From Bryobacteraceae bacterium (GTDB lineage: Bacteria > Acidobacteriota > Terriglobia > Bryobacterales > Bryobacteraceae): a DNA stretch of 64,000 bases. A program made the translations under genes and the position numbers. Each line of letters begins with the position of its first letter. Position 1 is the first letter of the stretch. Positions 22,535-42,410 of the stretch are shown here, in pieces. The stretch is taken from NCBI GenBank assembly GCA_035652975.1, contig DASRCT010000041.1:24379-88378 (forward strand), read 5' to 3'. The notes beneath the pieces are model-generated. The model was not told the DNA's origin. It did no database searches and saw only the letters and a list, made by a program, of their open reading frames with translations.

Positions 22535-22912
22535 CTAAGGCTTGGCTGAAGTTTGGCCAGGATCGGACGGGGTTGGATTGCTTTGCGCCCCGCCATTCTG
22601 ACTGGCGCCGTCCGGCGAGCTTCCTGCGGTCGCCGCCATGCGGTTGATCCCGCTCAGAATGCCGTCCAGGTCGCTTTTCATTTGCAGGTTCTGCTCGAGC
22701 GTGGTGAATTGCGCGAGCTGAGTCAAAAACTGAATGCTGTCGCTCGGATTCAGCGGATCCTGATTCTGAATCTGGGCAATCATCAGCTTCAAAAATGTGT
22801 TCTCATTAGCGAGATCGTCAACGCCGGAAGCCGTCTTTGCCGTGCCGCCAGTCGTGACAGATCCGCTCACATCGGGCGTATTCTGCACGTTGGAAACGCC
22901 GCTTACTGCCAT
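22535..22912 (-). CDS. flgD: Flagellar hook-capping protein FlgD, short form (N-terminal domain only)
   Basis: ENTFLKLMIAQIQNQDPLNPSDSIQFLTQLAQFTTLEQ is the FlgD N-domain signature. The ORF is only 125 aa. Confidence 0.8.
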   Translation of the reverse strand: MAVSGVSNVQNTPDVSGSVTTGGTAKTASGVDDLANENTFLKLMIAQIQNQDPLNPSDSIQFLTQLAQFTTLEQNLQMKSDLDGILSGINRMAATAGSSPDGASQNGGAQSNPTPSDPGQTSAKP

Positions 22913-24402: not shown

Positions 24403-24576
24403 GCAACGAGCGAGGCACGCCAGCTTCCATCGCGCCGCCGCGATTTTCATGCACATCCGGAAGGCCGGCGTCGAAATGTTGTCGAATTCGTTCCGTTCTG
24501 ACAGATTTTTGCCAAAACGAAACGTCCCGTATTGAACTTCTCGGCGGAATTTCCGTAAATTTGAGCGACTTTCGGT

Positions 24577-24592
24577 CGGCCCACGAATTGCA
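24577..24592 (+). promoter_or_regulatory. Weak sigma-54-like -24/-12 element upstream of flgF
   Basis: cGGCCCacgaaTTGCA has GG and GC at the canonical 12-nt register (consensus TGGCAC-N5-TTGCA). It lies only 17 nt from the annotated ATG, which argues against function. Confidence 0.15.
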
Positions 24593-24608
24593 CGACGCAA
24601 GATGACCT

Positions 24609-25355
24609 ATGGATCCCTTGATGATTGCGGCTTCCGGCGGAATGCGAAGCCGCATGGAATCGCTGGATATGCTCGCAAATAATATTGCGAATTCGGGAGT
24701 GGCCGGATTCAAGGCCGACCGCGAGTTCTACAACTTGTATGTTTCCGAGCAGGCGGCGAGCGGTCCGGACCCGGCTCTTGCGGGTTCCATGCTGCCCGTT
24801 ATCGAGCGGCCATGGACCGATCTGTCGCAAGGCGCGCTGGTCGCGACCGGCAGCCCGTCGGACCTGGCGATATCAGGTCGCGGATTTTTTGTCGTCGATT
24901 CGCCGTCCGGACCCCTATACACGCGTAACGGCAATTTCCATCTGGGCAAGTCCGGGCAACTCGAAACCGAGCAGGGTTATACGCTGCGCCTGCGGCGGCC
25001 GGATGGAAGTCCCGCGGCGCTTGATCCCTCCCTCCCGTTCGAGGTCGCCAACGACGGAGTCGTTCGCCAGGGCGGGCAGGATGTGGGCAAGATTGAGATC
25101 GCCGATTTCGACGACAGCGCGAATTTGAAAAAGGCGGGCAGTACATATTTCAAAGTGGATGCGTCAGTATTGGCGCGCGCGGCCGCAAACGTCGAAATCA
25201 AACAGGGAAGTCTCGAATCGGCCAACGTTCCCGTAGCGGAATCGGCGGTCCGTCTGGTGAGCGTCATGCGCCAGTTTGAAATGCTTCAGCGCGCCATGTC
25301 GCTGGGCGCGGACATGAACCGCCGCGCCGTCGAAGAAGTGGCGAAAGTCAGTTAG
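24609..25355 (+). CDS. flgF: Flagellar basal-body rod protein FlgF
   Basis: N-terminal rod motif (LDMLANNIANSGVAGFK) and C-terminal motif (GSLESANVPVAESAVRLVSVMRQFEMLQRA). It lies upstream of flgG. Confidence 0.85.
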   Translation: MDPLMIAASGGMRSRMESLDMLANNIANSGVAGFKADREFYNLYVSEQAASGPDPALAGSMLPVIERPWTDLSQGALVATGSPSDLAISGRGFFVVDSPSGPLYTRNGNFHLGKSGQLETEQGYTLRLRRPDGSPAALDPSLPFEVANDGVVRQGGQDVGKIEIADFDDSANLKKAGSTYFKVDASVLARAAANVEIKQGSLESANVPVAESAVRLVSVMRQFEMLQRAMSLGADMNRRAVEEVAKVS

Positions 25356-25366
25356 TGAGGTGAACA

Positions 25367-26158
25367 GTGATCAGAGCTCTTTACAGCGCTGGCAGCGGGA
25401 TGGTTGCGCAGCAGATGAATGTGGACAATATCGCGCACAATCTCGCCAACGCCAACACCGTTGGTTTCAAGATGCGTCGGGCGCAGTTTCAGGACCTGCT
25501 GTATCAAAGTTTTGTCCAGCCCGGAGCGGCCGCCGGATCGCAGACCGTCGTGCCGAGCGGATTGCAGCTAGGCCTGGGCACTCGTCCCGTCGCCAATGAA
25601 ATCATATTTTCGCAAGGCAACTTCCAGCAGACCGACAATCCGCTCGACCTCGTAATTCAGGGCCGCGGGTTCTTCCAGGTGCGCAGACCATCCGGCGAGC
25701 TGGCGTATACCCGCTCCGGCGAATTTCATCTCGACCGTGATGGCAATGTGGTCACCAGCGACGGCGATCCCCTCGAACCGCAAATCACGATTCCGCCCGA
25801 GGCCCAGTCGATTACCGTCGCCGCCGACGGCACGGTCAGCTACACGCAGCCGGGACAAAATGCAGCGCAGATCGCAGGACAGATTCAGCTTGCCAATTTC
25901 GCGAATCCCGCCGGCCTGAACAGCCTGGGCGGCAGTCTCTTCTCGCCCACCGACGCCAGCGGCGAGCCGACCGTCGGAAATCCGGGCGGCCAGGAAGGAC
26001 TCGGAACGCTGATGCAGGGCTATGTGGAGCAGTCCAATGTCAGCGTGGTCGAGGAGTTTATCAATATGATCGTCAGTCAGCGCGCTTATGAAGCGAACTC
26101 CAAGGTGGTTAAGGCGGCCGACGACATGTACAGCCAGGTGAACAACCTGACGCGATAA
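25367..26158 (+). CDS. flgG: Flagellar distal rod protein FlgG
   Basis: MIRALYSAGSGMVAQQMNVDNIAHNLANANTVGFK...GYVEQSNVSVVEEFINMIVSQRAYEANSKVV. The start codon is GTG. Confidence 0.95.
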   Translation: MIRALYSAGSGMVAQQMNVDNIAHNLANANTVGFKMRRAQFQDLLYQSFVQPGAAAGSQTVVPSGLQLGLGTRPVANEIIFSQGNFQQTDNPLDLVIQGRGFFQVRRPSGELAYTRSGEFHLDRDGNVVTSDGDPLEPQITIPPEAQSITVAADGTVSYTQPGQNAAQIAGQIQLANFANPAGLNSLGGSLFSPTDASGEPTVGNPGGQEGLGTLMQGYVEQSNVSVVEEFINMIVSQRAYEANSKVVKAADDMYSQVNNLTR

Positions 26159-27129
26159 TGCGCGCTGGAATTATAGCCGGATGCATCTGCTCGATCTCGT
26201 TCGGCGCCTGCGTACGGATTGAGGGCGACCGCGTCACGGCCAAACATCTGGCGAAGGCCGCGCCCGCCTTTGCAGCGGTCCCGGGCGATGCCGTGATCGG
26301 GTTTGCTCCGGCGCCGGGATTGCAGCGGAACTTTTCCGCCGGCGAACTTTCCCGGATAGCGCATCGTCTCGGCGCCGTTGAGGAGGTTGTCGAAGGCATT
26401 TGCGTCGAGCGCGCGTCGGAGGTTCTGACGGAGGAGCGGCTTCTGACCGCTATACGATCTGCCTTGCCGCGGACGGGCTTTCAGATCGAGATTCTCGATT
26501 TCAGCCGCTACCCGGTCCCCGCTGGCGAATTGGAATTTACGCTTGCCGGTCTGCCGCGACCTCCTGCAGCCGCGCCGGACGCCCCCGTGATCTGGCGCGG
26601 CCGGGTGAAGTATGGCGATCGACGGACCGTGACCGTCTGGGCCAGCGTACGAATCAGCTCGGAAGGATCCTGGATCGAGGCCGCTCTGCCGATTGCCGCG
26701 AATGAGGAAATTCGGGCCAGCCAGCTCATCCTCAGATCCGGACGAATGTACGGACTAGACGCCGGGGTGATAAGGGATCCGAACGAGCTCATCGGCCGCA
26801 GGCTCGCGCACAGCGTTCGCGCGGGGCAGAGAATCACGGCCGACATGATTGGAGCACGGCGCGAGGTTGAGGCGGGCGACCTGGTTCAGGCGTCGGTGGT
26901 CAGCGGCGCAGCGGCGCTCATGTTCGAAGCGCGCGCCGAATCTGGCGGCCGCACAGGGCAACGTGTATTCGTAAAAATGCCGGATACCGGCCGCAGGATC
27001 TCGGCGCAGGTGATCGCAAAAGGAAAGGTGCAGCTCGATGTCGACAAGAAAGATGTGGCCGCCGCCGGCGGCAGCGCTGATCGCGTTGGTGGCGACGACG
27101 CCCGGCCTGTACGCCGCGAAAAAAGATAA
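26158..27129 (+). CDS. flgA: Flagellar P-ring assembly chaperone FlgA
   Basis: It sits between flgG and flgH. A SAF-like segment (VIRDPNELIGRRLAHSVRAGQRITADMI) is followed by a beta-clip (GDLVQASVVSGAAALMFEARAESGGRTGQRVFVK). The start overlaps the flgG stop as TAATG. Confidence 0.75.
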   Translation: MRAGIIAGCICSISFGACVRIEGDRVTAKHLAKAAPAFAAVPGDAVIGFAPAPGLQRNFSAGELSRIAHRLGAVEEVVEGICVERASEVLTEERLLTAIRSALPRTGFQIEILDFSRYPVPAGELEFTLAGLPRPPAAAPDAPVIWRGRVKYGDRRTVTVWASVRISSEGSWIEAALPIAANEEIRASQLILRSGRMYGLDAGVIRDPNELIGRRLAHSVRAGQRITADMIGARREVEAGDLVQASVVSGAAALMFEARAESGGRTGQRVFVKMPDTGRRISAQVIAKGKVQLDVDKKDVAAAGGSADRVGGDDARPVRREKR

Positions 27130-27757
27130 AGCAAAGCTGGAACCCCAGTCTGGCCTGGACAGGTATCTCGCGCAGGCGCTGGCCGCCGAAGCGCCTGCAT
27201 TCAATCCCTCGATCGGCTCCACCTACGTTCAGGGCGCCCGTCTGGCCGATCTGGTGCGCGATCCCCGCGCCAGTCAAGTCGGAGACATTGTAACGATTCT
27301 GGTTTCCGATAAAGCGTCAGCCACGTCGACCGGAACGACGAACACGGCGCGCAAGAGCAGCTCGAAGGCCGGCGTGCAATCTCTCGCTGGTCCGCTGAAG
27401 GCGACCGGAGCGCTGGCCAATCTGGCCTCCATGACTGGCGATCAGCAGTTGCAGGGCCAGGGCACGACGAGCCGGCAAAGCACGTTCACCACCACCTTGT
27501 CAGCCAGAGTGACGCATGTTCTGCCAAGCGGCAATCTGGTGGTGGAGGGCAACAAGGACGTATGGGTGAACTCCGAGCGCCAATCCGTCACCGTGCGCGG
27601 AATTTTGCGGCCCACAGACTTGTCTGCGACGAACATCATCCAATCGGACCGGCTGGCCGATTTGGAGGTTCGCATTAACGGCAAAGGCGTCGTGGGCGAT
27701 TCGATCCGGCGACCCTTTGTGCTCTATCGCATCCTGATGGGCTTGCTTCCGTTCTAA
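27038..27757 (+). CDS. flgH: Flagellar L-ring protein FlgH
   Basis: GDIVTILVSDKASA...LSARVTHVLPSGNLVVEGNKDVWVNSERQSVTVRGILRPTDLSATNIIQSDRLADLEV are FlgH family blocks. An alternative ATG lies at 27053. Confidence 0.85.
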   Translation: MSTRKMWPPPAAALIALVATTPGLYAAKKDKAKLEPQSGLDRYLAQALAAEAPAFNPSIGSTYVQGARLADLVRDPRASQVGDIVTILVSDKASATSTGTTNTARKSSSKAGVQSLAGPLKATGALANLASMTGDQQLQGQGTTSRQSTFTTTLSARVTHVLPSGNLVVEGNKDVWVNSERQSVTVRGILRPTDLSATNIIQSDRLADLEVRINGKGVVGDSIRRPFVLYRILMGLLPF

Positions 27758-27767
27758 CGGGTCTAAC

Positions 27768-28862
27768 GTGATGAGACGCTTCTCCCTGCTTTTGACATTC
27801 GTTCCGTTACTGGCGCCCGGCGCAGTCCGGCTCAAGGAGCTCGCCTCGATTGAGGGAGTTCGCGAGAACCAGCTGGTCGGCTACGGCCTCGTGGTCGGTC
27901 TGAACGGCACCGGCGATAAGCGGCAGACAGTCTTCTCCGCACAGAGCCTGACGAATATGCTCGAGCGTATGGGCGTCACCGTGCCGTCCACTGCAATTCT
28001 GGTGCGCAACACCGCAGCTGTGATGGTCACGGCCAATCTCCCGGCGTTCGCCCAGCCCGGCTCGCGCATCGATGTGACAGCCGCTGCAATCGGCGATGCG
28101 GCCAACCTGCAAGGCGGAATCCTGATCATGACCGCCCTGAAGGGCGCAGACGGGCAGGTATACGCGGTTGCGCAGGGACCGGTTGTGACGGGCGGCTTTG
28201 TCGCCGGTCGAGGGGGCAACTCGCAGACGCTGAATCATCCCACCGTGGGGCGCATTCCCGCCGGAGCGATCGTAGAAAAGGCGCCGCCGACGGTGGCTCC
28301 CCAGGGCCGCGTCCGGCTGCAACTGCATGACCCCGATTTCACCACTGCCGCGCGCATTGCAGAAGCGCTGAACCAGAAATTCGGCAGCGACTCGAAGCCG
28401 GTCGCGCGCGCCGAAAACTCCGGGCTGGTCGCGGTGGATCTCCCGCCACAGTTCGCCCACCAGAGCGTCGAATTCATCGCGCTAATCGAAAGTCTTCGCG
28501 TGGATGCCGACCGCGTCGCCAAGATTGTCGTCAACGAACGGACGGGCACGATCGTCGTCGGCGGCGACGTGAAGATCGCGCCAGCGTCGATCCTGCATGG
28601 CGCCCTCACGGTGGAGATACAGACCCGGTACGACGTCTCACAGCCGGCGCCGCTTTCGGGAGGGAAGACGGTTGCCGCGCCCGAAACAAGCGTGAGCGCA
28701 AAGGAAGAGAAGGCGCGCAATGTAGCGCTCAAGCAGGGCGCCACCGTGGATGATCTGGTGCGGGCGCTGACCGCAATCGGGTCCACATCGCGCGACATCA
28801 TCGCCATTCTCCAGAATCTGCGTCGGGTCGGAGCGCTCGAAGCGGAAATTGAGGTGATCTGA
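27768..28862 (+). CDS. flgI: Flagellar P-ring protein FlgI
   Basis: RLKELASIEGVRENQLVGYGLVVGLNGTGD...LQGGILIMTALKGADGQVYAVAQG...NERTGTIVVGGDVKI...LVRALTAIGSTSRDIIAILQ. Either GTG 27768 or ATG 27771 could be the start. Confidence 0.95.
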   Translation: MMRRFSLLLTFVPLLAPGAVRLKELASIEGVRENQLVGYGLVVGLNGTGDKRQTVFSAQSLTNMLERMGVTVPSTAILVRNTAAVMVTANLPAFAQPGSRIDVTAAAIGDAANLQGGILIMTALKGADGQVYAVAQGPVVTGGFVAGRGGNSQTLNHPTVGRIPAGAIVEKAPPTVAPQGRVRLQLHDPDFTTAARIAEALNQKFGSDSKPVARAENSGLVAVDLPPQFAHQSVEFIALIESLRVDADRVAKIVVNERTGTIVVGGDVKIAPASILHGALTVEIQTRYDVSQPAPLSGGKTVAAPETSVSAKEEKARNVALKQGATVDDLVRALTAIGSTSRDIIAILQNLRRVGALEAEIEVI

Positions 28863-29486: not shown

Positions 29487-32075
29487 CTACTTGGCATCCC
29501 GCCAGTTGTCGCCGATCCCGACCTCCGCAAGCAGCGGAACCTCCAGGGGGTACACCTGCTCCATTTCAGCTTTCACCATCGCTGCAAGCTCGTCGGCTTC
29601 TTCCGGCGGCGCTTCGAAGACCAGCTCGTCATGCACTTGCAGCAACATTTTCGCCTGATATCGTTTTTCGCTGAGCAGCCTGTCAATCCGGATCATCGCC
29701 ATTTTGATCAGGTCTGCGGCCGTACCCTGAAGCGGCGTGTTGACCGCGGTCCGCTCCGCAAATGAGCGGGCGTTTGGATTGCGGCTGTGCATATCCGGAA
29801 TCAGCCGCTGGCGCCCCAGCAGCGTGCGGGATATGCCGGTCTTCCGCACTTCCTCCAACGTGGATTCGATGAACTTGCGCACGCCCGAGTATCGTTCAAA
29901 ATAGGCCTGGATATAGCGCTCCGCTTCCTTGCGATCGATCCCCAAAGACGCAGCCAGACCAAACGGAGTCTGGCCGTAGATGATGCCGAAATTCACCGCT
30001 TTGGCGCGCCGCCGCATTTCGGAATCGATCATAGATGGCGGCTTTCCGAACACTTCCGCGGCTGTGCGCGTGTGAATGTCTTCGCCCCTGCGGAACGCCT
30101 CCACGAGCACCGGATCGCGCGACATGTGCGCGAGCAGCCGCAACTCAATCTGCGAGTAATCCGCCACGATCAGGCGCCAGCCCTCGCGCGGCACAAACGC
30201 CGCGCGAATTTCGCGGCCGAGTTCGCTGCGGATTGGGATATTCTGCAAGTTGGGATTCGATGAGGACAGGCGTCCGGTGGCCGCTCCAATCTGGTTGAAG
30301 GTAGTGTGGAGACGGCCGGTCAGCGGATTGATGAGGGTCGGCAGCGCGTCCACGTAGGTCCCCTTGAGCTTCGCCAGTTGCCGGTAATCGAGCACTTTCC
30401 GCGCGATCTCGTGCTCCTCGGCCAGCGTCTCGAGTACGTCCGCGGCGGTGGAGGTGGTTTTCCCGCGGCCATATTTCGAGGGCTGCGGCAGGCGCAGCTC
30501 CTCAAACAGCACCCTGCTCAGCTGTTGCGGCGAATTGATATTGAACTGCCGGCCGGCAAGTTCGCAAATCTCGGCGGCGAGCCGCTGGATGTCGTCCTCC
30601 ATGCGCCGTCCGAGCGATTTCAACTGCGCCGGCTCGATGCGGATGCCCGTGCGCTCCATTCGCGCCAGGACGAAGCACAGCGGAAGATCAATGGTCTCGT
30701 AGAGGGCTCGGAAGTTCTGTTTGTCGACCTCCGGCGCAAGCCGCTCATAAATCGCAAGCGCCGATTCGGCGCGTTGTTCCGGGCGCGGCAGCAGCTTGCG
30801 ATCCAGGTACTTTTCTGCAAGCGTCTCTGCGCTGCACCCAGAAGGGTCTGCGCACAGCAGAAACGCATACAGCATGATGTCATGCTCGAAGCCGTTGGCC
30901 TCAATGCCTTCATTCATCAGCGCAAGCAGGACCGACTTCACGTCATGCGCGATCTTCGGCCGGCTTGAAGTCAGCACGTTAAGCCCGCGCCGGCTCGCGC
31001 GCACCACCTCGAGCGGCGCGGCCCTGCCCTCGTTCAGTCTCCAGGCAAAGCCGACCGAGGTCGGTCCCAGCGCATCCGCCTCGGCGGACCGGGCCTCGAC
31101 CGCAAGCGGCGCCTCTGCCGGTATCGACTCCAGCCAGGCGTCCAGGTCTTCAGGGGTGTTGAGCGTCTGGTAATCGCGGGTGTGCGAGTCCTCCGCAGGA
31201 CCGAGCTCCTTGAGCAAACTGAAAAACTCCAGCTCCTTATAGATCCGCTTGAGCGTCTGTACATCCGGCGTCTGCGCTTTCACCGCTTCCAGCGAAAACT
31301 CGATGGGCACGTTGGTATCAATGGTTGCCAGCCGTTTGCTGAGCTCAATGCGCTCACGGTTATTCTGGAGGCTCTCGCGATACGTTTTGCGCTCGACTTC
31401 GGCCGCGCGCTCGAGCAGCGCCTCCACCGATCCAAAGCGCGCGATCAGGTCGCGTGCGCCCTTTTCGCCGATCCCCGGGGCGCCAGGAATGTTATCGATG
31501 GAGTCGCCCATCAGCGCGAGCAGGTCGGCCACCTGCTTCGGCTTCACTCCCATGAAGCTCTCGGTCGTCGCCGGATCGTACCAGACATTTTCTTTGACGG
31601 GATTGTACATGCTGACGCGCTCGTCGACGAGCTGGAGCATGTCCTTATCGCTGGAGACAATCACGACGTCGATATCCGAGTCTGCGCATCTATGCGCGAT
31701 CGTGCCAATGACATCGTCGGCTTCAAATCCCGGGTACTCGAGAATCGGAATGTTCATCGCCTCGAGCAAGCGGCGGATGTACGGGATCTGCTCGCCAAGA
31801 TCAGGAGGCATCTCGGACCGGTTTGCCTTATACTCGGCGAACGCCGCGTCGCGAAATGTCGGGCCCGCGCTTTCAAACACAGCGGCGATGTATTCAGGTC
31901 TGTACTCCTTCATCAGCTTTCGGACCATGTTGTGGAAGATATACACGGCTTCCGTGGACAAACCCGAGGTGGTGCGCATGGGCGGAGCGCCGGTCCGCGC
32001 CCGCGCATGATACGCGCGGAAGATGAAGCCGTAGGAATCAATCAGAAACAGGCGTTGGCGAGGCACTACTTCCAA
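29487..32075 (-). CDS. polA: DNA polymerase I
   Basis: 862 aa. 5'-nuclease domain (LFLIDSYGFIFRAYHA...GIGEKGA) and polymerase motifs A (LIVADYSQIELRLLAH), B (RRRAKAVNFGIIYG) and C (LLQVHDELVFE). Confidence 0.95.
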   Translation of the reverse strand: MEVVPRQRLFLIDSYGFIFRAYHARARTGAPPMRTTSGLSTEAVYIFHNMVRKLMKEYRPEYIAAVFESAGPTFRDAAFAEYKANRSEMPPDLGEQIPYIRRLLEAMNIPILEYPGFEADDVIGTIAHRCADSDIDVVIVSSDKDMLQLVDERVSMYNPVKENVWYDPATTESFMGVKPKQVADLLALMGDSIDNIPGAPGIGEKGARDLIARFGSVEALLERAAEVERKTYRESLQNNRERIELSKRLATIDTNVPIEFSLEAVKAQTPDVQTLKRIYKELEFFSLLKELGPAEDSHTRDYQTLNTPEDLDAWLESIPAEAPLAVEARSAEADALGPTSVGFAWRLNEGRAAPLEVVRASRRGLNVLTSSRPKIAHDVKSVLLALMNEGIEANGFEHDIMLYAFLLCADPSGCSAETLAEKYLDRKLLPRPEQRAESALAIYERLAPEVDKQNFRALYETIDLPLCFVLARMERTGIRIEPAQLKSLGRRMEDDIQRLAAEICELAGRQFNINSPQQLSRVLFEELRLPQPSKYGRGKTTSTAADVLETLAEEHEIARKVLDYRQLAKLKGTYVDALPTLINPLTGRLHTTFNQIGAATGRLSSSNPNLQNIPIRSELGREIRAAFVPREGWRLIVADYSQIELRLLAHMSRDPVLVEAFRRGEDIHTRTAAEVFGKPPSMIDSEMRRRAKAVNFGIIYGQTPFGLAASLGIDRKEAERYIQAYFERYSGVRKFIESTLEEVRKTGISRTLLGRQRLIPDMHSRNPNARSFAERTAVNTPLQGTAADLIKMAMIRIDRLLSEKRYQAKMLLQVHDELVFEAPPEEADELAAMVKAEMEQVYPLEVPLLAEVGIGDNWRDAK

Positions 32076-32139
32076 ACTACCAGCAGCGCCCTCGGGCGAT
32101 TCTCCACCCCATCGTCTGCGCCCGCCGGGTGTATAACTG

Positions 32140-32514
32140 ATGACTATGGCCTACGTCGGATATCGCCTGTCGGAGGACGACAATACCGTTGCTGTTATCG
32201 AGACCGCGGATGCGCCCGCGACTGAGGGGCCGCGTCCCGCGAGCATACAAACTCTGTTCAGCGGCCGCGTCAGCGTTCTCCCCGGCACGCTCGAAAGCTC
32301 GCTCGATTCCGTCCACAAAGCCGCGGGTATTGTCATGAAAAAGATGCTCGCGATGGTACCCGAGCGCCCGGACCGCCTCGAGATCGAGCTGGGCCTCAAA
32401 TGCTCGGCGGAACTGGACGCCTGGGTGCTCGCCAGCATCGACGGCGAGGTTCATCTGAAGTTGAAATTGTCTTGGCAGAAACCCGGCGAAGGCCGGCCGG
32501 GCGATCATGGCTGA
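32140..32514 (+). CDS. Trypco2-like (trypsin co-occurring domain 2 / CU044_2847-like) small protein
   Basis: 124 aa. N-terminus YRLSEDDNTVAVIETAD and C-terminus LEIELGLKCSAELDAWVLASIDGEVHLKLKLSWQK match my recollection of this family (vEf.v.lsae.g..i....geanfkvtLtW). The stop overlaps the start of the protease-STAND gene. Confidence 0.65.
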   Translation: MTMAYVGYRLSEDDNTVAVIETADAPATEGPRPASIQTLFSGRVSVLPGTLESSLDSVHKAAGIVMKKMLAMVPERPDRLEIELGLKCSAELDAWVLASIDGEVHLKLKLSWQKPGEGRPGDHG

Positions 32515-35500
32515 AGCCGCTCGAATCGCTCCTGCGGCGCATCAGCGGGCGCTGGTTGCGATCCCGGGCCGCGGCGCGCTGGCAGGAACGGGCGTGTGCG
32601 TTCTTCCGCGCGCACTCGTGCTGACCTGCGCCCACGTGGTCAACACGGCGCTCGGTCGCGACCAGCGCGCGGCCGAATTCCCGGACAGGTCGATTCCGAT
32701 ATCTCCGGTCGCGGCTTCCGGTCTGCTTGACGCCGATGTCGTTGCCTGGTCGCCGCATGACCATTTCGACGTCGCGTTACTGAAGGTCCGCCAGGAACTG
32801 CCTGACGCAGTGCACGCAACCCCGATCTTCGACGCAGGCGACCTCGCCGATCTGGAATTCGACACTTACGGCTTTCCGAAGGGCTATCACAAAGCGCCCT
32901 ATTACGGGCGCAGCGCGCAAGGCAAAGTCGTCGTGAAGACCGCGACAGGGCGGTACCAGGTGGAGCACAACGGCATTGAGGAGGGCTTCAGCGGAGCGCC
33001 GGTGCGGGATCTGCTGCTGCGGCGCGTGATCGGGATCGTCGCCGCTTCCGATAACAGTCTTGCGTTCATTACTCCGTCCGCAGCAATAGCGGACATTTGC
33101 GCTGCCGCGGGCCATTCGCTCGAAGTCATCAGGCTGGACTATCCGTTCGAAATCCTGACGGCCGGGCTTGAAATGGCGCGCGGCAACGTGCTCAGCTCGG
33201 TCGAAGCCCTGTTATCGAACTATTTGGGCGGCCCATCAAATCCGGCGCCATTCGGCGGCCGTGCGGACTCAATGCGCGCTCTCAACGAGTGGGTGGGGAA
33301 TCCTGCGAAGCCGTTTGCTCTGATGGCCTACCCGCCGGGTCGGGGAAAGACCACTACTTTGGTACGCTGGGCCGTCGAGGCGGCGGCAGAGCGTTCCGCC
33401 ACTGTCGTCTTTGTGCCCGTCAGCCTTCGCTTCAATACGGCCAGGCGGGCTGACTTCCTGCAAATCTGGGCGTCTCGTCTCCTCAGCGTTCATGCCAGCG
33501 CGCGGCAGGCGCCGCCTGATCGCGAGGATGAGATCGTCCGTTTGATCGACCAGATCCTGCGCGCGGACTGGCCGGCCGATCGTGCGCCGCTGGTCACGAT
33601 TCTCGATGGCGTCGATGAGGCCACCGATTGGAAGGCCGCCGAAGCGCTCCGATTCCCCATACGGCTCGGCCGGAACGTCAAGGCGCTCATTGCCGCGCGG
33701 ATTCTCGCGGGCCAGCACAGCGAGCAGGACTGGATTCAACAGCTCGGATGGGCTCCGGACGCCACGTCGCTCATTCCGCTGCCGCCGCTCGATCGGAATG
33801 GAATCCGCGAAGTCCTCCGCGCCCCGTCTCACCCGGCCCGCCGCTTTGCTGACGACGATGCGATGATCGATCGTCTCCTGTATCTCACGGGCGGCGATCC
33901 GTTCGAACTGTCGCTGTATTCGGACGCGATCTCGGATTTGCCCGGCGCTTTCCTTGATGAGAAAGACCTGGAAAGTCTTCAGCCGGGACTTAAAACCTTC
34001 TTCCACAAGTGGTGGTCGTATCAGAGGAGCCGTGGTCTTGCGCAGAACCGCGAGGCGTTGAACCTGCTTCATCTTCTCTCGTGCGCGCTCGGCCCCTTGG
34101 AGCGCCGCGATATTCAAGCCATCGCGGGCGACAGCGAGCTGTCGAATGGCGACATACTGGACGAAGCCTTGCAGGCCATCTCGCGGTTTGTCATCGGTGA
34201 TGGCTTGCGCACGCCGTATAGCCTGTCGCATCCGCGCATACGCCTGTTCCAGATCGAGGAGATGGGAGCTGCCCGGCGAGCTTCATGGGACGCGAAAATT
34301 TTGCAATACTGCCTTGACGCGCTCGACAAGCCAGCGTCTTCTGGGCGCCCGGCGCGTTACCAGGTTCAGTTTCTCGGGGCGCATCTCGAAGCGGCCGGCG
34401 CTTTGCGCGAAATGCTTTACCGGCTGGTCGATTCCGGTTGGGTGCGCGCCTGGGAGGATATCGACGGACCGGGAGTCCACACCGGATTTCTAAAGGACCT
34501 GGACCGCGCGTGGCGCGCGGCCGTCCAGTCCCGCGATCTACCCATGCAGATCAAGTGCGCGCTTTGCGCCAGCAGTGTTGCGGCCGCGAGCGACGTGCCC
34601 GGCGCGCTGCTCGCTGATGCGATCCGTGCGGGCCTTATTACGCCGCTCCAGGCAATGAACGTCATTCGGCAGAACGTCACCGATTACCGCGTCGTGGAAG
34701 CGCTGGAGGCCGTCTTTCCGCTCCTGGCCGATGAATCGTTGCGGTCTGAAGCGATACGCCTGGCGCGAGGACTCGCCGAGCCGGAGTGGATCGCCAGCGT
34801 GCTTGCCGCAGCGATTCCGTGCGTTCCCGAACAGGATCGGCCGCGGCTCCTGCAGGAATCGTATGCGCTGGCGATACAGACCGGCGTCGAGTCCACGCGA
34901 GTTCGCCTGCTGACGGCGCTGATCCCGCACTGGCCGGACGCGGCGCGGCAGGAAAGAATCGATGAGGCGGCGCAGTTGGCGCAGCGATTGGATTATCGCC
35001 CGCATCGAGCGGAAGCGCTAATCAGTCTTCTTCCGGTCCTGACGGGAAAGGATCGCAAAGAAGCGCTGGAGACTGCGTTCAGCGCGGTTGCATACGAAGA
35101 CGACGACGCCCCCTTCCTAGAGGTCGTAAGGGCGGCGCCGGCCCCTCTGCCTGAGCGAATCGAATACAGAGTGGCGGGCCGGCTGCTCGAATTCCAAATG
35201 GCTGGTCAGGACGCGCGGTTTCGCGCTCTTGCCGCCGCGGCTTACCCGAAATCGAGTCCGAAACTCCGAAAGGTTGTCAATGCCCACCTGCTTACGGGGA
35301 AACTGGACGACGAGCGTATTCTCACACTTTCCGAGTTGCTGCCGTACATGGATCCGGCAGCGCGGCGCCGTGGGGAGGCGCTGCTCGAGCAGCATCTCGA
35401 GAAAGCCGGCGTGGAAGCCCGCTGCAATGCACTCATCGCCTTGGCGCGAGTGCAGCGCGAAAATGCCCTGCGCGCCACAGAGGCCTACGCCTGCGCCGGG

Positions 35501-36913
35501 ACTCTGGAACTGAAATCGCGGCTGCTCGCCTATGCCGATATCCTGCCGCTGGCGCCGGCGGAGTTGCGCCGCCGTATGGAGTCCGACATGCTTCGAGCGG
35601 CGATCGAACCCGCGGAAGTTGCAGACCGGCTGCGGGCAATTGCGACAGTCGCGCCGCTGCTGCCGTCGCCATTAAAGGAGCAGGCGTTAAGAGAGGCCTT
35701 CGACGCAGCGCGGCAGATCGGCGACGAATTCGTGTTCGGCGAATTCCTTTTGCGACTGTCGGATCATTTGACCGGTGACAATCACGCAGCCGCGCTGGCG
35801 TTAGTCGAAGAGGTGTTCGATCGTGGAGGGAAGCATAAGGTCCGTGAGTATGCGTCCGATTATTCCGAGCAAGTGCTGGGGCGTGTGATCGAGGTCGCGG
35901 CGCGGCTCCCGGATTGGGATCGGGTCCTGCTTCTTGAAGACCTGCCAGTCTCGACCCCCGAGTTGCGCCGCAAAGTTGACGCCGCTCTCGCTGACGCAAC
36001 GCGTCGACTCGACCGGGGTGCAAAGGCGCGCGCCCTGCTCGCCCTCGCAAGAAACGCCGATGCCGCGCGTCGGAAGAGATTCGCCGCTGAGGCATGGGAG
36101 GCGCTGCAACCGGTCCTGGAATTAGTTCCGGCGATCATCCTCGCCGAACTTGCTCACCTGCGCGAAGAGCCTATTGATAGCGCACGCGTCAAGCAGTACG
36201 CGGTCGATATCCTGACGCGAGGAACCAATTCCTTCGGCGGGCGGACCGACGAGGTGACGCGCCTCGTTGAACTATTCCCGAATCACTGGCGCACTGTAGT
36301 TGATGGCGTGAATTCTACGCAAGTCCCTACCGATTTCGAGGATTTGGTGGAATTCACGCGCATGGAGAGGCTCGAGAGGATATCGCGTCTTGCGCCGGCA
36401 GCCGCCGAAGCCGAATTACTGTCGCTGGCGTGGTCTTTACGTGAGAAAGCGAAGAACCCGTTTCGCGCCGCGCTGGTCAGGGCGCGTATGCTGCCGCTGC
36501 TGCCCGCAGCCGATCGCACCGCCGCAATTAGGGAAGTTCACGATCGGATGCCGGAGCTCACCGCTGCGCAGCAGGCGGAAGTGGCGTCAGCGCTTGTCCC
36601 TCATGTTCACGGCGAGCACAGGTCGAAACTGTTGCGCGGCGTTTTGGATTCCATCGTCACGCAGACTACTAAATCTTCTCTGCAATCGGAATTCGAGCCG
36701 CTCAACGATGGCCTGCGGTTATGGGCGCGCGAGGATCCGGACGAGGCGGCAGCGGGGCTCGCCGAGATACTACACAGGCTATCCCGCTGGCGCCGCCCGC
36801 AGCTCTTCCGCGCGCTGACACAACTCACTCCATTCCTGCTGGAGCTTTCCGGCGCGCGCTCGGCCGATGCCATCGCCGCCGCTGCGCGCCAAGTGACTGG
36901 ATGGTGGCCGTAG
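32507..36913 (+). CDS. Trypsin-like serine protease - STAND P-loop NTPase - helical-repeat protein (1468 aa)
   Basis: Protease triad: TCAH43VV, FD88VALLKV and GFS162GAPV. Walker A is YPPGRGK281TTT and Walker B is LVTILD367GVDEA (hhhhDGhDE, as in NACHT/STAND). From about aa 600 to the end there are alpha-helical repeats. Confidence 0.85.
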   Translation: MAEAARIAPAAHQRALVAIPGRGALAGTGVCVLPRALVLTCAHVVNTALGRDQRAAEFPDRSIPISPVAASGLLDADVVAWSPHDHFDVALLKVRQELPDAVHATPIFDAGDLADLEFDTYGFPKGYHKAPYYGRSAQGKVVVKTATGRYQVEHNGIEEGFSGAPVRDLLLRRVIGIVAASDNSLAFITPSAAIADICAAAGHSLEVIRLDYPFEILTAGLEMARGNVLSSVEALLSNYLGGPSNPAPFGGRADSMRALNEWVGNPAKPFALMAYPPGRGKTTTLVRWAVEAAAERSATVVFVPVSLRFNTARRADFLQIWASRLLSVHASARQAPPDREDEIVRLIDQILRADWPADRAPLVTILDGVDEATDWKAAEALRFPIRLGRNVKALIAARILAGQHSEQDWIQQLGWAPDATSLIPLPPLDRNGIREVLRAPSHPARRFADDDAMIDRLLYLTGGDPFELSLYSDAISDLPGAFLDEKDLESLQPGLKTFFHKWWSYQRSRGLAQNREALNLLHLLSCALGPLERRDIQAIAGDSELSNGDILDEALQAISRFVIGDGLRTPYSLSHPRIRLFQIEEMGAARRASWDAKILQYCLDALDKPASSGRPARYQVQFLGAHLEAAGALREMLYRLVDSGWVRAWEDIDGPGVHTGFLKDLDRAWRAAVQSRDLPMQIKCALCASSVAAASDVPGALLADAIRAGLITPLQAMNVIRQNVTDYRVVEALEAVFPLLADESLRSEAIRLARGLAEPEWIASVLAAAIPCVPEQDRPRLLQESYALAIQTGVESTRVRLLTALIPHWPDAARQERIDEAAQLAQRLDYRPHRAEALISLLPVLTGKDRKEALETAFSAVAYEDDDAPFLEVVRAAPAPLPERIEYRVAGRLLEFQMAGQDARFRALAAAAYPKSSPKLRKVVNAHLLTGKLDDERILTLSELLPYMDPAARRRGEALLEQHLEKAGVEARCNALIALARVQRENALRATEAYACAGTLELKSRLLAYADILPLAPAELRRRMESDMLRAAIEPAEVADRLRAIATVAPLLPSPLKEQALREAFDAARQIGDEFVFGEFLLRLSDHLTGDNHAAALALVEEVFDRGGKHKVREYASDYSEQVLGRVIEVAARLPDWDRVLLLEDLPVSTPELRRKVDAALADATRRLDRGAKARALLALARNADAARRKRFAAEAWEALQPVLELVPAIILAELAHLREEPIDSARVKQYAVDILTRGTNSFGGRTDEVTRLVELFPNHWRTVVDGVNSTQVPTDFEDLVEFTRMERLERISRLAPAAAEAELLSLAWSLREKAKNPFRAALVRARMLPLLPAADRTAAIREVHDRMPELTAAQQAEVASALVPHVHGEHRSKLLRGVLDSIVTQTTKSSLQSEFEPLNDGLRLWAREDPDEAAAGLAEILHRLSRWRRPQLFRALTQLTPFLLELSGARSADAIAAAARQVTGWWP

Positions 36914-36928
36914 GCGCCCGTGCTCGCC

Positions 36929-36957
36929 GGTCGCGGCCGCCGTCTGGCGCCGCGACC
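36929..36957. terminator. GC-rich hairpin between convergent genes (possible bidirectional terminator)
   Basis: GGTCGCGGC (36929-36937), an 11-nt loop, then GCCGCGACC (36949-36957). It lies between the stop at 36913 (+) and the stop at 36975 (-). There is no U-tract. Confidence 0.35.
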
Positions 36958-36974
36958 GCGTAGGAACGGAGAGG

Positions 36975-38276: not shown

Positions 38277-40136
38277 ATGAAATTGCAGTCTGCCGCAGGC
38301 GTTGCGGCATGTATGACGCTGTTGTCCGTTTTTGCGGCGCCTGCCCCGGAATTGACGCGGCCGCGCGCTGGAAAAGTACCAATCTTTCCCGAGTCCGAGC
38401 TCCAGCCGGGAATGAAAGGCGTAGCTTGGACCGTTTTTCAGGGAACTGAACCGGAGCCTGTTCCGGTCGAGATTGTCGGCGTACTCAAGAACGCGTGGGG
38501 GCCGAAACAAGACATCATTCTCGGCAAAATGGGCGGAAAGGCGGTTCGGACAAATGTCGCCGGCGGCATGAGCGGCAGTCCCGTCTACATCGATGGCAAA
38601 CTGGTGGGAGCCATCGCCCTGCGGCTGAGCGTCTTCTCTCCGGATGCAATCTGCGGCATTACGCCGATCGAGCTGATGCTCGAAATCAACGATTTCAACA
38701 AGTCCATTCCGTCCAGCGCAAAAGTTCCCAGCCGCCCCAGCGATCGCGCCGCGGTGGAAATTCCTGATGGCATGCTGGCGCGCGCCGTCTCCGCAGGCGC
38801 TTCCGACAGGTTTACTACGCCGCAATTGATGGTTCCGATCGAAACGCCGCTGACGTTCTCAGGCTTCAGCGATCGAACTCTCAAGGAGTTCGGGCCGATG
38901 TTCCAACAGCTTGGGATGACGCCGGTGCAGGGTGGCGCGAGCAGTAATCTTCGCTCTCCAAAGCCGGTCCCCGGATGGCAGAATGCGCTTCAGCCGGGCG
39001 ATGCCGTCGCAGGTGTGCTGGTGTCAGGCGATATGGCCGTCACCGGGTTGGGAACAGTGACCTACAACGACGGCAAGCGCGTGCTCGCCTTCGGTCATCC
39101 GTTTTTCAATCTGGGTCCGGTGGACATGCCCATGAGCAAGGGTGAGATCCTGATGGTGCTCTCATCCCAATTTCAGCCGAATAAGTTCGGGAACGCCACA
39201 GACATAGTCGGCGCGCTCCGGCAGGACCGCCACAGCGGGATCCTGGGAGAGCTGGGCGCAACGGCCGATATGGTCCCTGTCAACGTCAAGGTGCGGTCGT
39301 ACTCGGACGCCAACACGGTTCTGAAGGAAAAGGATCTGCACTTCAATGTGTTCGTCCACCAGAAGTGGACTCCCTACCTGATGATGGTGACGCTGTTCAA
39401 CTCCATTGAGGGTTTGAACGATTATGCGGAAGAGGCGACCTACCGTCTGAACGGTGAAATTGAGCTCGACGGCCAGCCTAACCTCTCGCTCACAACCATG
39501 GCCGCGCCGAGCGAGATGCCGGTGCCGACGCCCATGGTTCTGGCGGGATGGTGGGGCGACAAGTTCAACCGTCTGTTCCTGAACTCCGTCAGCATGCCCA
39601 AGTTACGGCGTGTGAACGCCACTATCGACCTGCTGCCAGAGCGCCGCATCGCGACCATCGAAAATGCGTGGACTCCGACGAGCGAGCTCGAAGCCGGCGC
39701 GGAGGTTCCGCTGAAGATCTTCCTGCGGCCGTATCGCGGCGAGCGCATCGAGCGCGATGTCACAATCAAGCTGCCGGCCGGAATATCGAAAGGCGAACAC
39801 CGCATCCTGCTCAGCGACGCGGAGACATTGAACCGGATGCAGAGCGCTGCCGGCTCGGCGAACCGCTATATGGACATTCCTCAGACCGTGTCGCTCATTA
39901 ACCAGGAACGCTCCAACAATAAGCTCTATGTGTCGTTGGTCGAGCGCCGGCCGACCATCTACGCCGAGGACAAGACGCTTCCCAACCTTCCGGCTTCGGT
40001 CCTGAATGTGATGCAGACCGGGCGCACCGCGAGTCGCACGATGTCCAGCTCTCCGGAGAGCGCCGTCGAACAGACGTCGATCGCCTTCGATCAGGTGATC
40101 AGCGGCAGCTACTCGCTGCGCATCAATGTAAAGTAG
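38277..40136 (+). CDS. Secreted peptidase S55 (SpoIVB-like) domain protein
   Basis: Signal peptide. GGMSGSPVYIDGKLVGAIA...GITPIELML resembles the SpoIVB Ser block. GLGTVTYNDGKRVLAFGHPFFNLG resembles the SpoIVB His block. Confidence 0.65.
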   Translation: MKLQSAAGVAACMTLLSVFAAPAPELTRPRAGKVPIFPESELQPGMKGVAWTVFQGTEPEPVPVEIVGVLKNAWGPKQDIILGKMGGKAVRTNVAGGMSGSPVYIDGKLVGAIALRLSVFSPDAICGITPIELMLEINDFNKSIPSSAKVPSRPSDRAAVEIPDGMLARAVSAGASDRFTTPQLMVPIETPLTFSGFSDRTLKEFGPMFQQLGMTPVQGGASSNLRSPKPVPGWQNALQPGDAVAGVLVSGDMAVTGLGTVTYNDGKRVLAFGHPFFNLGPVDMPMSKGEILMVLSSQFQPNKFGNATDIVGALRQDRHSGILGELGATADMVPVNVKVRSYSDANTVLKEKDLHFNVFVHQKWTPYLMMVTLFNSIEGLNDYAEEATYRLNGEIELDGQPNLSLTTMAAPSEMPVPTPMVLAGWWGDKFNRLFLNSVSMPKLRRVNATIDLLPERRIATIENAWTPTSELEAGAEVPLKIFLRPYRGERIERDVTIKLPAGISKGEHRILLSDAETLNRMQSAAGSANRYMDIPQTVSLINQERSNNKLYVSLVERRPTIYAEDKTLPNLPASVLNVMQTGRTASRTMSSSPESAVEQTSIAFDQVISGSYSLRINVK

Positions 40137-40148
40137 CCAATCAATTCA

Positions 40149-42410
40149 ATGCACAAAATTGAGTTCTTGTTATTGCCCGCCTGGGTGAGGGCGGTGGTGT
40201 GCGCGGCGGCGGTTGCGGCGGTTGCGCTGCCGGGCCGCGCCGTAGAGACGAAGTTCTGGCAGCAGCAGGATTTCTCCGATTTTGAAAAGGGAAATCTGAA
40301 TAAGATTTCGATCCGCAGCGACGGGCGGCTGTTTCTCGCCCCGGCGCTCACCGAAGTGCTCGATTCTTCCGCGCCGTACCTGTGGGCCCTGGCGCTTGAC
40401 GCTTCAGGCAATATTTATGCCGGCGGAGGCGGCCCGACCGGATCCACTTCAAAACTCTTCCGCATAGCGCCGGACGGCAAGTGGACGACGCTCGCCGAAC
40501 TTCCCGGACTTGAAATTCACGCCATTGCTGTCGATCGTAAGGGCGTTGTCTACGCGGCCACGGCGCCGGACGGGAAGGTCTACCGCGTCGCCAACGGGAA
40601 ATCGGAAATATTTTTCGACCCGCATACAAAATACATATGGGCTTTGGCGTTTTCGCCGGAAAATGATCTCTATATCGCTACGGGGGACCGCGGTGAGGTC
40701 TACAAGGTGACCCCTCAGGGCAAGGGCGCCGTTTTTTTTCAGACCGAGGAGACGCACGCACGTTCGCTGGCCGTTGACCGCGTGGGCAACCTCATCATTG
40801 GCACGGAGCCGAACGGCGTCATTATGCGGGTGACGCCTCAGGGCCAAGGGTTCGTTTTGTATGAGACCCCGAAGCGCGAGATCACGGCGGTGGCCGTCGC
40901 CCAGAACGGATCGATTTATGCGGCTGCCGTCGGCGCGAGAGCTGCTGGTGTTCTGGCCGCGCCGCCCGCGCCCAGTTCGCAGCAGCCCTCCGCTCCTCCG
41001 CCAACTATGGCGCCCACGCCGCCAGGGGGCCGTCAGCCGCAGCCGACCTCCCGAACCGAGGCCGCCCCTCCGCCTCCTTCTCTATCGCCCTCGCCGGCGG
41101 CGATCTCAGGCGGCTCCGAAGTTTACCGGATCGACCCCGACGGGTCTCCGCATAAAGTGTGGACCCACGGGCAGGAGATCGCCTACGCCATTGCCTTCGA
41201 CAACAGCGGAAGGCCGCTGGTTGGCACGGGCAACAAAGGCAACATCTACCGCCTCGACTCCGATCTTCGCTACACACTGCTTCTCAATCTCCCGCCAACG
41301 CAGGTCACCGGTTTTGCTGCGGGGCCGGGCGGGGCGATCTACGCCGCCACCGGCAATGTGGGAAAGGTCTACCGCCTGGGCCCCGCCAGCGAACGGCAGG
41401 GCTCGTTTGAGAGCGACACGTTCGATGGCGGCGCGTTTACGTACTGGGGACGGCTCAGCTTCGTGGGCGCTCTGAACGGCGGCGGGATCTCGTTTGAAGC
41501 CCGCAGCGGCAATGTCAGTCATCCGCAAAAGAATTGGAGTCCGTGGACCCCTGTAACGATTTCCGGCGACGGCGGACGCGTCGCCGCCCCGCCCGCCCGA
41601 TTCCTCCAGTACCGCGTCACGTTCACCGCGTCAGCCGACGGCCGGTCGCCCGAGGTCAGCGCCATCGATATCGCGTATCTCAACAAGAATCTCGCGCCCT
41701 TGATCGAGAGCATCGAGATCACGCCCGCCAATTACCGATTTTCACCGTCCGTCGTTTCGACTCTCACATCCACGACGGGCCGCAGCATTACGCTTCCGCC
41801 GCTTGGAGGCCGGAGACCACCGCCCATGGCCCCTCTGGCCGAAATCAGCTCGCAAACCATGCAGTACGCGAAGGGCTACCAAGGCGCCCGCTGGCTGGCG
41901 CGAGATGACAACGGAGATACGCTCAAATACAAGGTGGAAATCCGCGGCGTGGGCGAGTCAGAGTGGAAGACGCTGAAGGACGAAGTCCATGAGCGCTCGA
42001 TCAGCTTCGATTCCACGGGCTTTGCCGACGGCAAGTACATGTTGCGCATTATCGCCTCCGACTCGCCGAGCAATCCGCCGGATCAAGCCTTATCCGCATC
42101 GCTTGAAAGCGATCTGTTCCTGATCGACAACACGCCGCCGGAAATCGTGGGACTCGCCGCGACCGCCAGCGCCAATGGGATCGAGGTTGGATGGATGGCG
42201 AAGGACGCCTTAAGCGTTGTTTCAAAAGCTGAGTACTCGGTGGACGGTGGAGAGTGGACGGTGGTCGATCCGATCACGAAGCTCTCTGATTCTTCCGAAG
42301 AAGAATATCGCCTCCATCTTCCGCGCACTCATGCCGGCGAATGCACTATCGCGATTCGGGTAACCGACGAATACGACAATCAGACGGTGCAAAAAACAAT
42401 TGTGCGGTGA
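40149..42410 (+). CDS. Secreted beta-propeller repeat protein with a Pro-rich linker and C-terminal Ig/FN3-like domains
   Basis: Signal peptide. Repeated blades (GNIYAGGG..., GVVYAATAPDGKVYRV, NDLYIATGDRGEVYKV, GNLIIGTEPNGVIMRV, GSIYAAAVG; after the linker GRPLVGTGNKGNIYRL, GAIYAATGNVGKVYRL). It starts 12 nt after the upstream stop. Confidence 0.7.
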   Translation: MHKIEFLLLPAWVRAVVCAAAVAAVALPGRAVETKFWQQQDFSDFEKGNLNKISIRSDGRLFLAPALTEVLDSSAPYLWALALDASGNIYAGGGGPTGSTSKLFRIAPDGKWTTLAELPGLEIHAIAVDRKGVVYAATAPDGKVYRVANGKSEIFFDPHTKYIWALAFSPENDLYIATGDRGEVYKVTPQGKGAVFFQTEETHARSLAVDRVGNLIIGTEPNGVIMRVTPQGQGFVLYETPKREITAVAVAQNGSIYAAAVGARAAGVLAAPPAPSSQQPSAPPPTMAPTPPGGRQPQPTSRTEAAPPPPSLSPSPAAISGGSEVYRIDPDGSPHKVWTHGQEIAYAIAFDNSGRPLVGTGNKGNIYRLDSDLRYTLLLNLPPTQVTGFAAGPGGAIYAATGNVGKVYRLGPASERQGSFESDTFDGGAFTYWGRLSFVGALNGGGISFEARSGNVSHPQKNWSPWTPVTISGDGGRVAAPPARFLQYRVTFTASADGRSPEVSAIDIAYLNKNLAPLIESIEITPANYRFSPSVVSTLTSTTGRSITLPPLGGRRPPPMAPLAEISSQTMQYAKGYQGARWLARDDNGDTLKYKVEIRGVGESEWKTLKDEVHERSISFDSTGFADGKYMLRIIASDSPSNPPDQALSASLESDLFLIDNTPPEIVGLAATASANGIEVGWMAKDALSVVSKAEYSVDGGEWTVVDPITKLSDSSEEEYRLHLPRTHAGECTIAIRVTDEYDNQTVQKTIVR

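Follow-up and report, generated by a model that had tools for sequence, protein, structure and literature searches.

Small proteins of the Trypco1 and Trypco2 families were named from gene-neighbourhood analysis (Kaur, Burroughs, Iyer & Aravind 2020, eLife 9:e52696), in which their pairing was placed mainly in vWA–MoxR (VMAP) ternary systems and tied to multicellular or social prokaryotes. Evans et al. (bioRxiv 2025.11.14.688446) united both families under the name Pepco and described a module of Streptomyces subrutilus in which the Pepco gene (SsPepco) lies immediately upstream of a trypsin–STAND gene (Avs4; SsAvs4). Toxicity triggered by the phage portal required both Pepco and the catalytic serine. 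SsPepco is a pre-formed, sodium dodecyl sulfate (SDS)-stable 9–10-mer β-barrel that becomes a pore toxin once cut by the protease: a charged, proline-rich tail of ~2 kDa is removed after Ile97, Pepco truncated exactly at Ile97 is toxic by itself, deletion of Pepco abolishes toxicity, and toxicity needs an amphipathic helix (L10, E15 and L17). On the sensor side, Lee et al. 2026 (Nature, PMC13581612) distinguished 589 prokaryotic STAND clades, 198 of them defence-associated and mostly carrying TPR-like helical sensors, with triggers known for Avs7–21; the sensors were sorted into 684 clusters. Here we analyse a related gene pair from a soil acidobacterium. It lies in a 64,000-nucleotide stretch, called the window below, of contig DASRCT010000041.1 (positions 24,379 to 88,378 of the forward strand) in the Bryobacteraceae bacterium assembly GCA_035652975.1.

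The small gene of the pair encodes a Trypco1 protein and the large gene a fusion of a trypsin-fold protease, a STAND NTPase and helical repeats, an architecture of which we are nearly certain. We read the pair as a two-gene, sensor-gated cell-death module of the abortive-infection type, belonging to the Pepco–protease class, and put the probability of this overall mechanism, reasoned by analogy with the published module, at roughly 0.65. A role in conflict or defence, taken broadly, is likely. That Trypco1 would be the cleaved, pore-forming effector is the assignment towards which we lean. The effector–STAND–repeat layout and its reading as a nucleoside triphosphate (NTP)-dependent conflict or defence system had been put forward in the first-pass annotation of this stretch, and this reading fits every test that we ran. 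The same annotation knew of no experimental work on the pairing; the genetics and biochemistry of Pepco–protease modules reported by Evans et al. make that statement, and with it the label of an uncharacterized pairing, outdated, and STAND clades have been catalogued by Lee et al. 2026.

The gene pair and its encoded proteins

The two genes (Table 1) meet at the junction GATCATGGCTGAAG, where the start codon (ATG) of the large gene and the stop codon (TGA) of the small one fall within 8 shared nt. The open reading frames (ORFs) of 124 and 1468 amino acids (aa) and the 8-nt overlap given in the first-pass annotation are both present, with bases 32507–32514 shared. Both proteins have identical NCBI entries from a Bryobacteraceae metagenome-assembled genome (MAG): HZT37956.1, annotated as ‘serine protease’, and HZT37955.1, annotated as ‘CU044_2847 family protein’. 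In the NCBI model, translation of the small gene begins at the next in-frame ATG (32146), giving 122 aa. Three related contigs (L008, L009 and L010) all preserve both genes, the overlap and a downstream PKD-domain gene. Compared with relatives at 92% and 84% protein identity (Nei–Gojobori method), the ratio of nonsynonymous to synonymous substitution rates (dN/dS) is 0.18–0.24 for the large gene and 0.12–0.16 for the small gene. Both genes are real and under purifying selection. The ratio is slightly raised in the repeat region (0.19–0.40), values at which no positive or diversifying selection on the repeats is seen. Distant pairs are separated by a gap of 13–14 nt or overlap by 1–23 nt.

The small protein matches Pfam Trypco1 (PF19493) at 52.2 bits (cut-off 24.6) and, as had been expected, the NCBIfam CU044_2847_fam model (NF041216) at 34.7 bits (cut-off 23). 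It had first been called Trypco2-like. Trypco2 (PF19631) gave no match at E ≤ 1, and we dropped that label because Trypco1 and CU044_2847 are the only families that score. At another locus, a single distant Trypco1 protein (L055, 2361–2792; E = 1.4e-13) also gives a weak match (E = 0.0039), over residues 81–123, to the beginning of the Trypco2 profile. The common name Pepco implies that a homologous core is present in both Pfam families, and this match is a hint of such a core. An exhaustive phmmer search of a representative library returned 88 relatives of the small protein at E ≤ 1e-3, more than a word-indexed search, which found three close relatives only. Besides the small protein itself, just one of the 88 falls below E ~1e-10, and the protein is therefore a divergent member of its family.

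Trp112, at the end of the last strand, is the sole invariant residue among the 66 aligned sequences (66/66), and the tail that follows this tryptophan has a median length of 7 aa (range 0–38) across the same alignment. The AlphaFold2 monomer model (predicted local distance difference test (pLDDT) score, 78) places a β-hairpin at residues 4–22, a disordered loop at 23–43 and a strand at 44–50, followed by a helix (51–72), strands at 79–89, 94–98 and 106–113, and a disordered tail (114–124). Strands 79–89 (RLEIELGLKCS) and 106–113 (LKLKLSWQ) alternate charged and hydrophobic residues and are amphipathic; their β-moments were equalled in 40 and 63 of 5000 shuffles, respectively. The sole helix, 51–72, is moderately amphipathic (moment equalled in 171 of 5000 shuffles). 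The tail QKPGEGRPGDHG is disordered and rich in glycine, proline and charge, with four charged residues and two prolines in 12 aa.

At its N terminus the large protein carries a protease domain, which matches Pfam Trypsin_2 over aa 27–177 with 41 bits (gathering score 27.6). The catalytic residues are H43 in LTCAHVV, D88 in FDVALLKV and S162 in GFSGAPV, and alignment A2, which holds 17 trypsin-bearing homologues, shows the His–Asp–Ser triad in all except one. Profile searches against the PDB matched MarP and HtrA2, and an AlphaFold2 model of aa 1–780 (pLDDT 84; predicted template-modelling (TM) score 0.65) matched MucD, DegS, DegP, HtrA and SplA in Foldseek over ~200 columns (target-normalized TM 0.5–0.78; root-mean-square deviation ~3 Å). 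The earlier assignment of a trypsin-fold protease is thereby borne out by the Trypsin_2 score, the conserved triad and the HtrA/DegS/MucD/SplA fold, and the residue numbers given with it (H43, D88, S162, K281 and D367) are all exact. The homologue without the triad, P0013 (L005, 1101–6056), has Arg and Ala in place of the catalytic His and Ser (TSARVV and GYAGA) and is a pseudo-protease; upstream of it, in place of Trypco1, a partner of 233 aa is encoded (L005, 388–1089) that has a hydrophobic segment at its N terminus and matches no Pfam family.

The nearest solved structures of the protease domain, HtrA, DegS and MarP, together with the chromosomal position beside polA, would also suit a housekeeping, HtrA-like quality-control protease. 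Such a protease, or an inert or decaying pair, is already disfavoured and we regard it as very improbable: a PDZ domain is absent, the protease continues into a STAND NTPase that retains every motif, the pairing with Trypco1 is specific, and neither ORF is broken, purifying selection acting on both.

By its motifs and predicted fold, the large protein is a member of the STAND NTPase superfamily, in agreement with the P-loop STAND assignment made initially. Across 23 homologues, G278, G280 and K281 of Walker A, D367, D370 and E371 of Walker B (hhhhDGhDE) and R398 (‘SAR’) are invariant; so, in the same 23-sequence alignment, are G463-D464-P465 (D464 nearly so) and H575 (‘SHPR’). Foldseek aligned the STAND part of the model with ADP-bound Apaf-1, MalT and the Pyrococcus STAND–TPR structure 6mfv over ~470–580 columns (Apaf-1, ~570). 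A profile search against PDB sequences found no solved STAND protein, only proteases and helical repeats. Pfam matches of the Trypsin_2 type and of the NACHT or AAA_16 type had been predicted for this ORF; the former was found, and the latter appears among the homologues. Of the Pfam STAND models, nSTAND_NTPase5 alone matches the large protein itself, at 14 bits and below its cut-off of 34, and the homologues match NPHP3_N (15/23), AAA_16 (12/23) and NACHT (9/23), with scores that in most cases lie close to or under the threshold.

The remainder of the protein, from aa ~700 to 1468, is built of helical repeats, as first described, although they extend over ~770 aa rather than the ~850 aa originally given. 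The autocorrelation maximum lies at a 36-aa offset, and an iterative repeat hidden Markov model (HMM), which is self-fitted and therefore descriptive only, resolves 13 or more units, whose core reads R..aL..L(L/A)P.Lp...r. AlphaFold2 helices are seen for aa 700–780; past aa 780, helicity comes from family-profile matches to helical-repeat proteins (designed helical repeats, TON_1535 and Pumilio). Pfam assigned none of the repeats to TPR.

Pairing and effector exchange among homologues

Relatives were collected with the STAND core (aa ~232–760) as the search unit in an alignment-based scan of genome contigs; a contig scan that used the single large protein as query confirmed no relatives. Species-level genomes with the core number at least 80 and belong to the Chloroflexota, Actinomycetota, Nitrospirota, Acidobacteriota, Pseudomonadota, Myxococcota and Bacteroidota. 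Most homologues carry other N-terminal domains on the same core (CHAT, PNP_UDP_1, NTase-conflict, DUF4062 or PRTase-CE) or short N termini. Such effector swapping is typical of defence STANDs, by the criterion of Lee et al. 2026.

With custom HMMs and Pfam, we found Trypco1 beside 9 of the 16 trypsin-bearing homologues, eight times directly upstream on the same strand and once divergent, and beside none of the 68 STAND-core homologues without trypsin (Fisher test with the 8/16 directly upstream, p ~3e-7). A tblastn search of plasmids with the protease domain gave 32 records, 22 of them from Streptomyces; among 11 plasmid relatives inspected, an annotated CU044_2847 gene lies directly upstream in 10, and none of the 11 protease proteins matches the STAND-core HMM within the stretch fetched. 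From the pairing and plasmid counts, Trypco1 therefore travels with the protease, and the protease–Trypco1 cassette and the STAND core recombine independently. This modularity is of use in annotation: because effectors are exchanged on the STAND core and Trypco1 keeps to the protease, the module class can be marked by a CU044_2847 gene that lies upstream of an annotated ‘serine protease’. Distant pairs often lie beside integrase, transposase or insertion sequence (IS) genes, and others are plasmid-borne.

A few loci depart from this arrangement. The divergent Trypco1 gene (L017, 2026–2322, minus strand; Saccharothrix sp. ALI-22-I) is transcribed away from the adjoining trypsin–STAND gene. The one inspected plasmid without an upstream CU044_2847 gene is that of S. 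longwoodensis (NZ_CP107814.1, L091), in which the Trypco1 HMM likewise has no match in the stretch fetched. In two Anaerolineales MAGs (L036, 2109–2945; L038, 2272–2946), the partner upstream of the trypsin–STAND gene is a protein of 224–278 aa with a zinc-ribbon-like CPxCGK...TCPKTG motif and no Pfam match; it may represent another family of protease-associated partners.

Proposed mechanism and its alternatives

In the mechanism that we propose, the large protein would rest in the cytoplasm as an inactive, nucleotide-bound STAND monomer. Its C-terminal ~36-aa helical repeats would bind a trigger, most likely a conserved phage protein, which would free the NTPase switch and lead to oligomerization. 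Oligomers would cluster the N-terminal trypsin-fold protease domains and so activate them. The protease would then cut the co-translated Trypco1/Pepco protein at a specific site, and the cut would turn this β-rich, amphipathic, oligomerizing pro-toxin into a membrane-permeabilizing pore, so that the infected cell would be killed or arrested ahead of the spread of the invader. For trigger sensing, oligomerization and protease activation we draw on STAND and Avs biology; Trypco1 cleavage, pore formation and cell death are modelled on Evans et al., and an anti-phage function is suggested by the published homologous module together with STAND biology. Of the three roles first offered for the small protein, regulator, substrate or inhibitor, the published data favour substrate, and more specifically a substrate that is the actual death effector.

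Several observations weigh against this mechanism. SsPepco may be of the Trypco1 or of the Trypco2 type. There is no conserved Ile before the tail in the Trypco1 protein studied here, in which the strand ends at W112, and its tail has 12 aa against ~20 aa in SsPepco; the sole Ile-rich column of the Trypco1 alignment (33/66) is L97 in the small protein. The N terminus is predicted to form a β-hairpin, unlike the amphipathic helix that was mutated in SsPepco. Neither the I97–R98 site nor the L10/E15/L17 pattern occurs in any of 11 Trypco1/CU044_2847 proteins from related loci (nine Streptomyces plasmids, one Nostoc plasmid and one Streptomyces chromosome), whose partners were not found by PADLOC to be Avs4. 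Foldseek found no meaningful PDB match to the small-protein monomer (best E, 2.9). Trypco1 is absent beside 7 of the 16 trypsin-bearing homologues, and the protease is therefore able to work with other partners or alone. A PADLOC run had been suggested at the outset; PADLOC-DB v2.0.0 matches neither the small nor the large protein at E ≤ 1, and the module is therefore not recognized as any Avs type in that database. No transfer RNA or mobile-element genes are seen near the pair in the window, and the 10 flanking ORFs scanned with PADLOC models form no defence island.

The licensing details of the published Pepco, in short, transfer poorly to Trypco1, with its invariant Trp, short tails, missing Ile and hairpin. 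Because Trypco1 has no conserved Ile, long tail or N-terminal helix, the published cleavage site is not transferable to it, and the combination of an invariant Trp, short or absent tails, no Ile and an N-terminal hairpin with a ~20-aa disordered loop means that the cut possibly lies elsewhere. Cleavage within the loop (aa 23–43), for example, or on the C-terminal side of Trp112 might release or remodel a pore or oligomer of another kind. The ~36-aa L-L-P-x-L repeats, for their part, would recognize a trigger outside the ~15 known Avs targets. That both hold together, with Trypco1 licensed unlike the published Pepco and the sensor belonging to a previously unassigned STAND clade with a trigger outside the known Avs targets, is a tentative proposal that we consider rather doubtful.

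The same features bear on another explanation, in which the large protein is a STAND–protease sensor whose protease acts directly on host or invader proteins, and Trypco1 serves as its regulator, inhibitor, chaperone or adaptor. An adaptor would agree with a diversity-generating retroelement (DGR) study, whose term for Trypco domains is ‘adapter domains’, and a caspase-like protease without an effector still defends (Evans et al.). The seven trypsin-bearing homologues without Trypco1 and the absence of the Ile, tail and N-helix features of the tested Pepco can be read in the same way. By contrast, in the tested system deletion of Pepco removed toxicity and truncated Pepco alone killed cells, Trypco1 has amphipathic β-strands typical of barrel formers, and its co-occurrence with the protease is strict in direction. 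We consider such a regulatory role unlikely.

An endogenous trigger has also to be weighed. The pair could be a non-antiviral conflict or stress module that responds to damage, misfolding, kin or colony conflict, or developmental cell death, and not to a phage protein. The ties of such systems to multicellular and social prokaryotes (Kaur et al. 2020) and the stress-response roles of protease–effector modules raised by Evans et al. are in keeping with this idea, as are the mild rise of dN/dS in the repeats with no diversifying selection and the stable chromosomal site, between housekeeping-type genes and with no defence neighbours in three related genomes. Against it, all STAND–protease–effector modules tested to date respond to phage proteins, effector swapping fits defence-associated clades, and relatives are found on plasmids and beside mobile-element genes. 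We judge an endogenous trigger to be quite unlikely.

Genomic setting and comparison with known systems

The pair lies between a divergent polA gene and a convergent PKD-domain gene, with flagellar genes upstream and an S55-like peptidase gene and a β-propeller gene downstream; GC content is flat throughout the region. Coordinates of the features are collected in Table 1.

Table 1. Features of the gene pair and its immediate borders, in window coordinates
Feature	Coordinates	Strand	Basis or remark
Intergenic region between polA (minus strand) and the small ORF	32076..32139	.	64 bp, divergent; presumed promoter and ribosome-binding site, a role that is inferred
Small gene (Trypco1/CU044_2847, ‘Pepco’)	32140..32514	+	124 aa; predicted latent effector and protease substrate
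C-terminal tail QKPGEGRPGDHG, aa 113–124	32476..32511	+	Follows Trp112; no AlphaFold2 secondary structure, low pLDDT; candidate processing region
8-nt overlap ATGGCTGA	32507..32514	+	Large-gene start shared with small-gene stop; operon-type coupling
Large gene	32507..36913	+	1468 aa; trypsin-fold protease, STAND NTPase, helical repeats; NCBI HZT37956.1
Protease domain, aa ~15–205	32549..33121	+	PA-clan chymotrypsin fold; Pfam Trypsin_2, conserved triad, PDB profile and Foldseek matches
Catalytic triad codons	H43 32633–32635; D88 32768–32770; S162 32990–32992	+	Conserved in homologues
STAND nucleotide-binding domain, aa ~232–425	33200..33781	+	Invariant motifs, homologue Pfam matches, fold
STAND motifs	Walker A GRGKTT 33338–33355; Walker B LVTILDGVDE 33590–33619; sensor-1 Arg398	+	
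STAND helical and winged-helix modules, aa ~426–700	33782..34606	+	GxP G463-D464-P465, MHD-like His575 (SHPR); AlphaFold2
C-terminal sensor candidate, aa 725–1460	34679..36886	+	At least 13 degenerate ~33–36-aa α-helical repeats
GC-rich hairpin	36918..36969	.	Stem 36929–36937/36949–36957; lies between the large gene and the convergent PKD-domain gene, which are 61 nt apart

A σ70 consensus scan found no promoter in the upstream intergenic region, and consensus promoter and terminator scans gave match counts no higher than in shuffled sequence. The hairpin downstream of the large gene has an RNA folding energy of −36.8 kcal/mol (z = −2.26), lacks a U-tract and was missed by the terminator consensus scan; it is a possible terminator.

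Just upstream of polA lies a flagellar basal-body cluster (24609–28862) that encodes two FlgE/F/G-family rod or hook proteins, FlgA and FlgI, preceded by an ORF (22903–24600) with a weak, sub-threshold FliK-like match. Downstream, positions 38277–42410 hold a gene for a protein with an S55 (SpoIVB-like) peptidase domain and then one for a 753-aa β-propeller (Reg_prop) protein. L008 has both the S55-like gene and its downstream neighbour, which is cut off by the contig end and has no Pfam match on record. In L009, the relative at 84% identity, the PKD-domain gene is kept and polA is absent, and positions 1–1550 have no blastn similarity to window positions 29487–32139, upstream of the pair. By this comparison the upstream boundary of the pair is rearranged between relatives. 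About 8 kb from the pair, a 974-aa protein encoded on the minus strand (45098–48022), the one product of the flanking ORFs with a PADLOC match, matches many PD-T4-6 kinase models as well as mad6 and MkoA over residues ~75–400 (E to 9e-86); this is probably a generic match to a Ser/Thr-kinase domain and not a defence system.

To our knowledge, phage defence in the Acidobacteriota is essentially unstudied. The pair, as we read it, extends a recent immune logic, in which a STAND sensor activates a protease that cuts a small pro-toxin, to a soil acidobacterium, and it leaves current concepts unchanged. Its STAND core and repeat sensor are missed by current PADLOC defence models. With the pair it can also be tested cleanly whether Pepco proteins of the Trypco1 branch act like the published example, from which they may differ: the family-wide invariant C-terminal Trp, the short tails and the N-terminal hairpin suggest a different cleavage site.

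Among known systems, Apaf-1, MalT and the Pyrococcus STAND–TPR protein (1z6t, 8bob and 6mfv) share with the pair the nucleotide-binding, helical and winged-helix fold over ~470–580 columns and a conserved ADP-sensing His and GxP motif; identity is 13–15%, and the effector and sensor domains differ. With the Trypco1/CU044_2847 family of Kaur et al. 2020 it has in common that both curated thresholds are passed and that a trypsin-like peptidase gene is adjacent, as in the family definition. Unlike in the systems described there, its protease forms one polypeptide with a STAND NTPase, and the neighbouring genes include neither MoxR nor vWA. The Avs and bacterial NLR-like proteins (Gao et al. 2022; Lee et al. 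2026) show the same order of N-terminal effector, STAND NTPase and α-helical repeat sensor, and the same swapping of effector domains among homologues. Unlike them, the large protein matches no PADLOC Avs or bNACHT model and no PDB STAND sequence, and its repeats are of a degenerate ~36-aa unit with an L-L-P-x-L core. The host, an acidobacterium of the Bryobacteraceae, sets the pair apart from SsPepco and SsAvs4, and, because the PADLOC Avs models give no match, so does a STAND core and sensor that are not Avs4. The two modules are alike in that a gene for a small (~120 aa) Pepco-class protein stands immediately upstream of a gene for an N-terminal trypsin-like protease, STAND and helical sensor, and in the small protein itself, which is β-rich and amphipathic and ends in a disordered tail with charged residues and proline. 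This kind of system was described experimentally in 2025, and the pair is a new member of it from an under-studied phylum.

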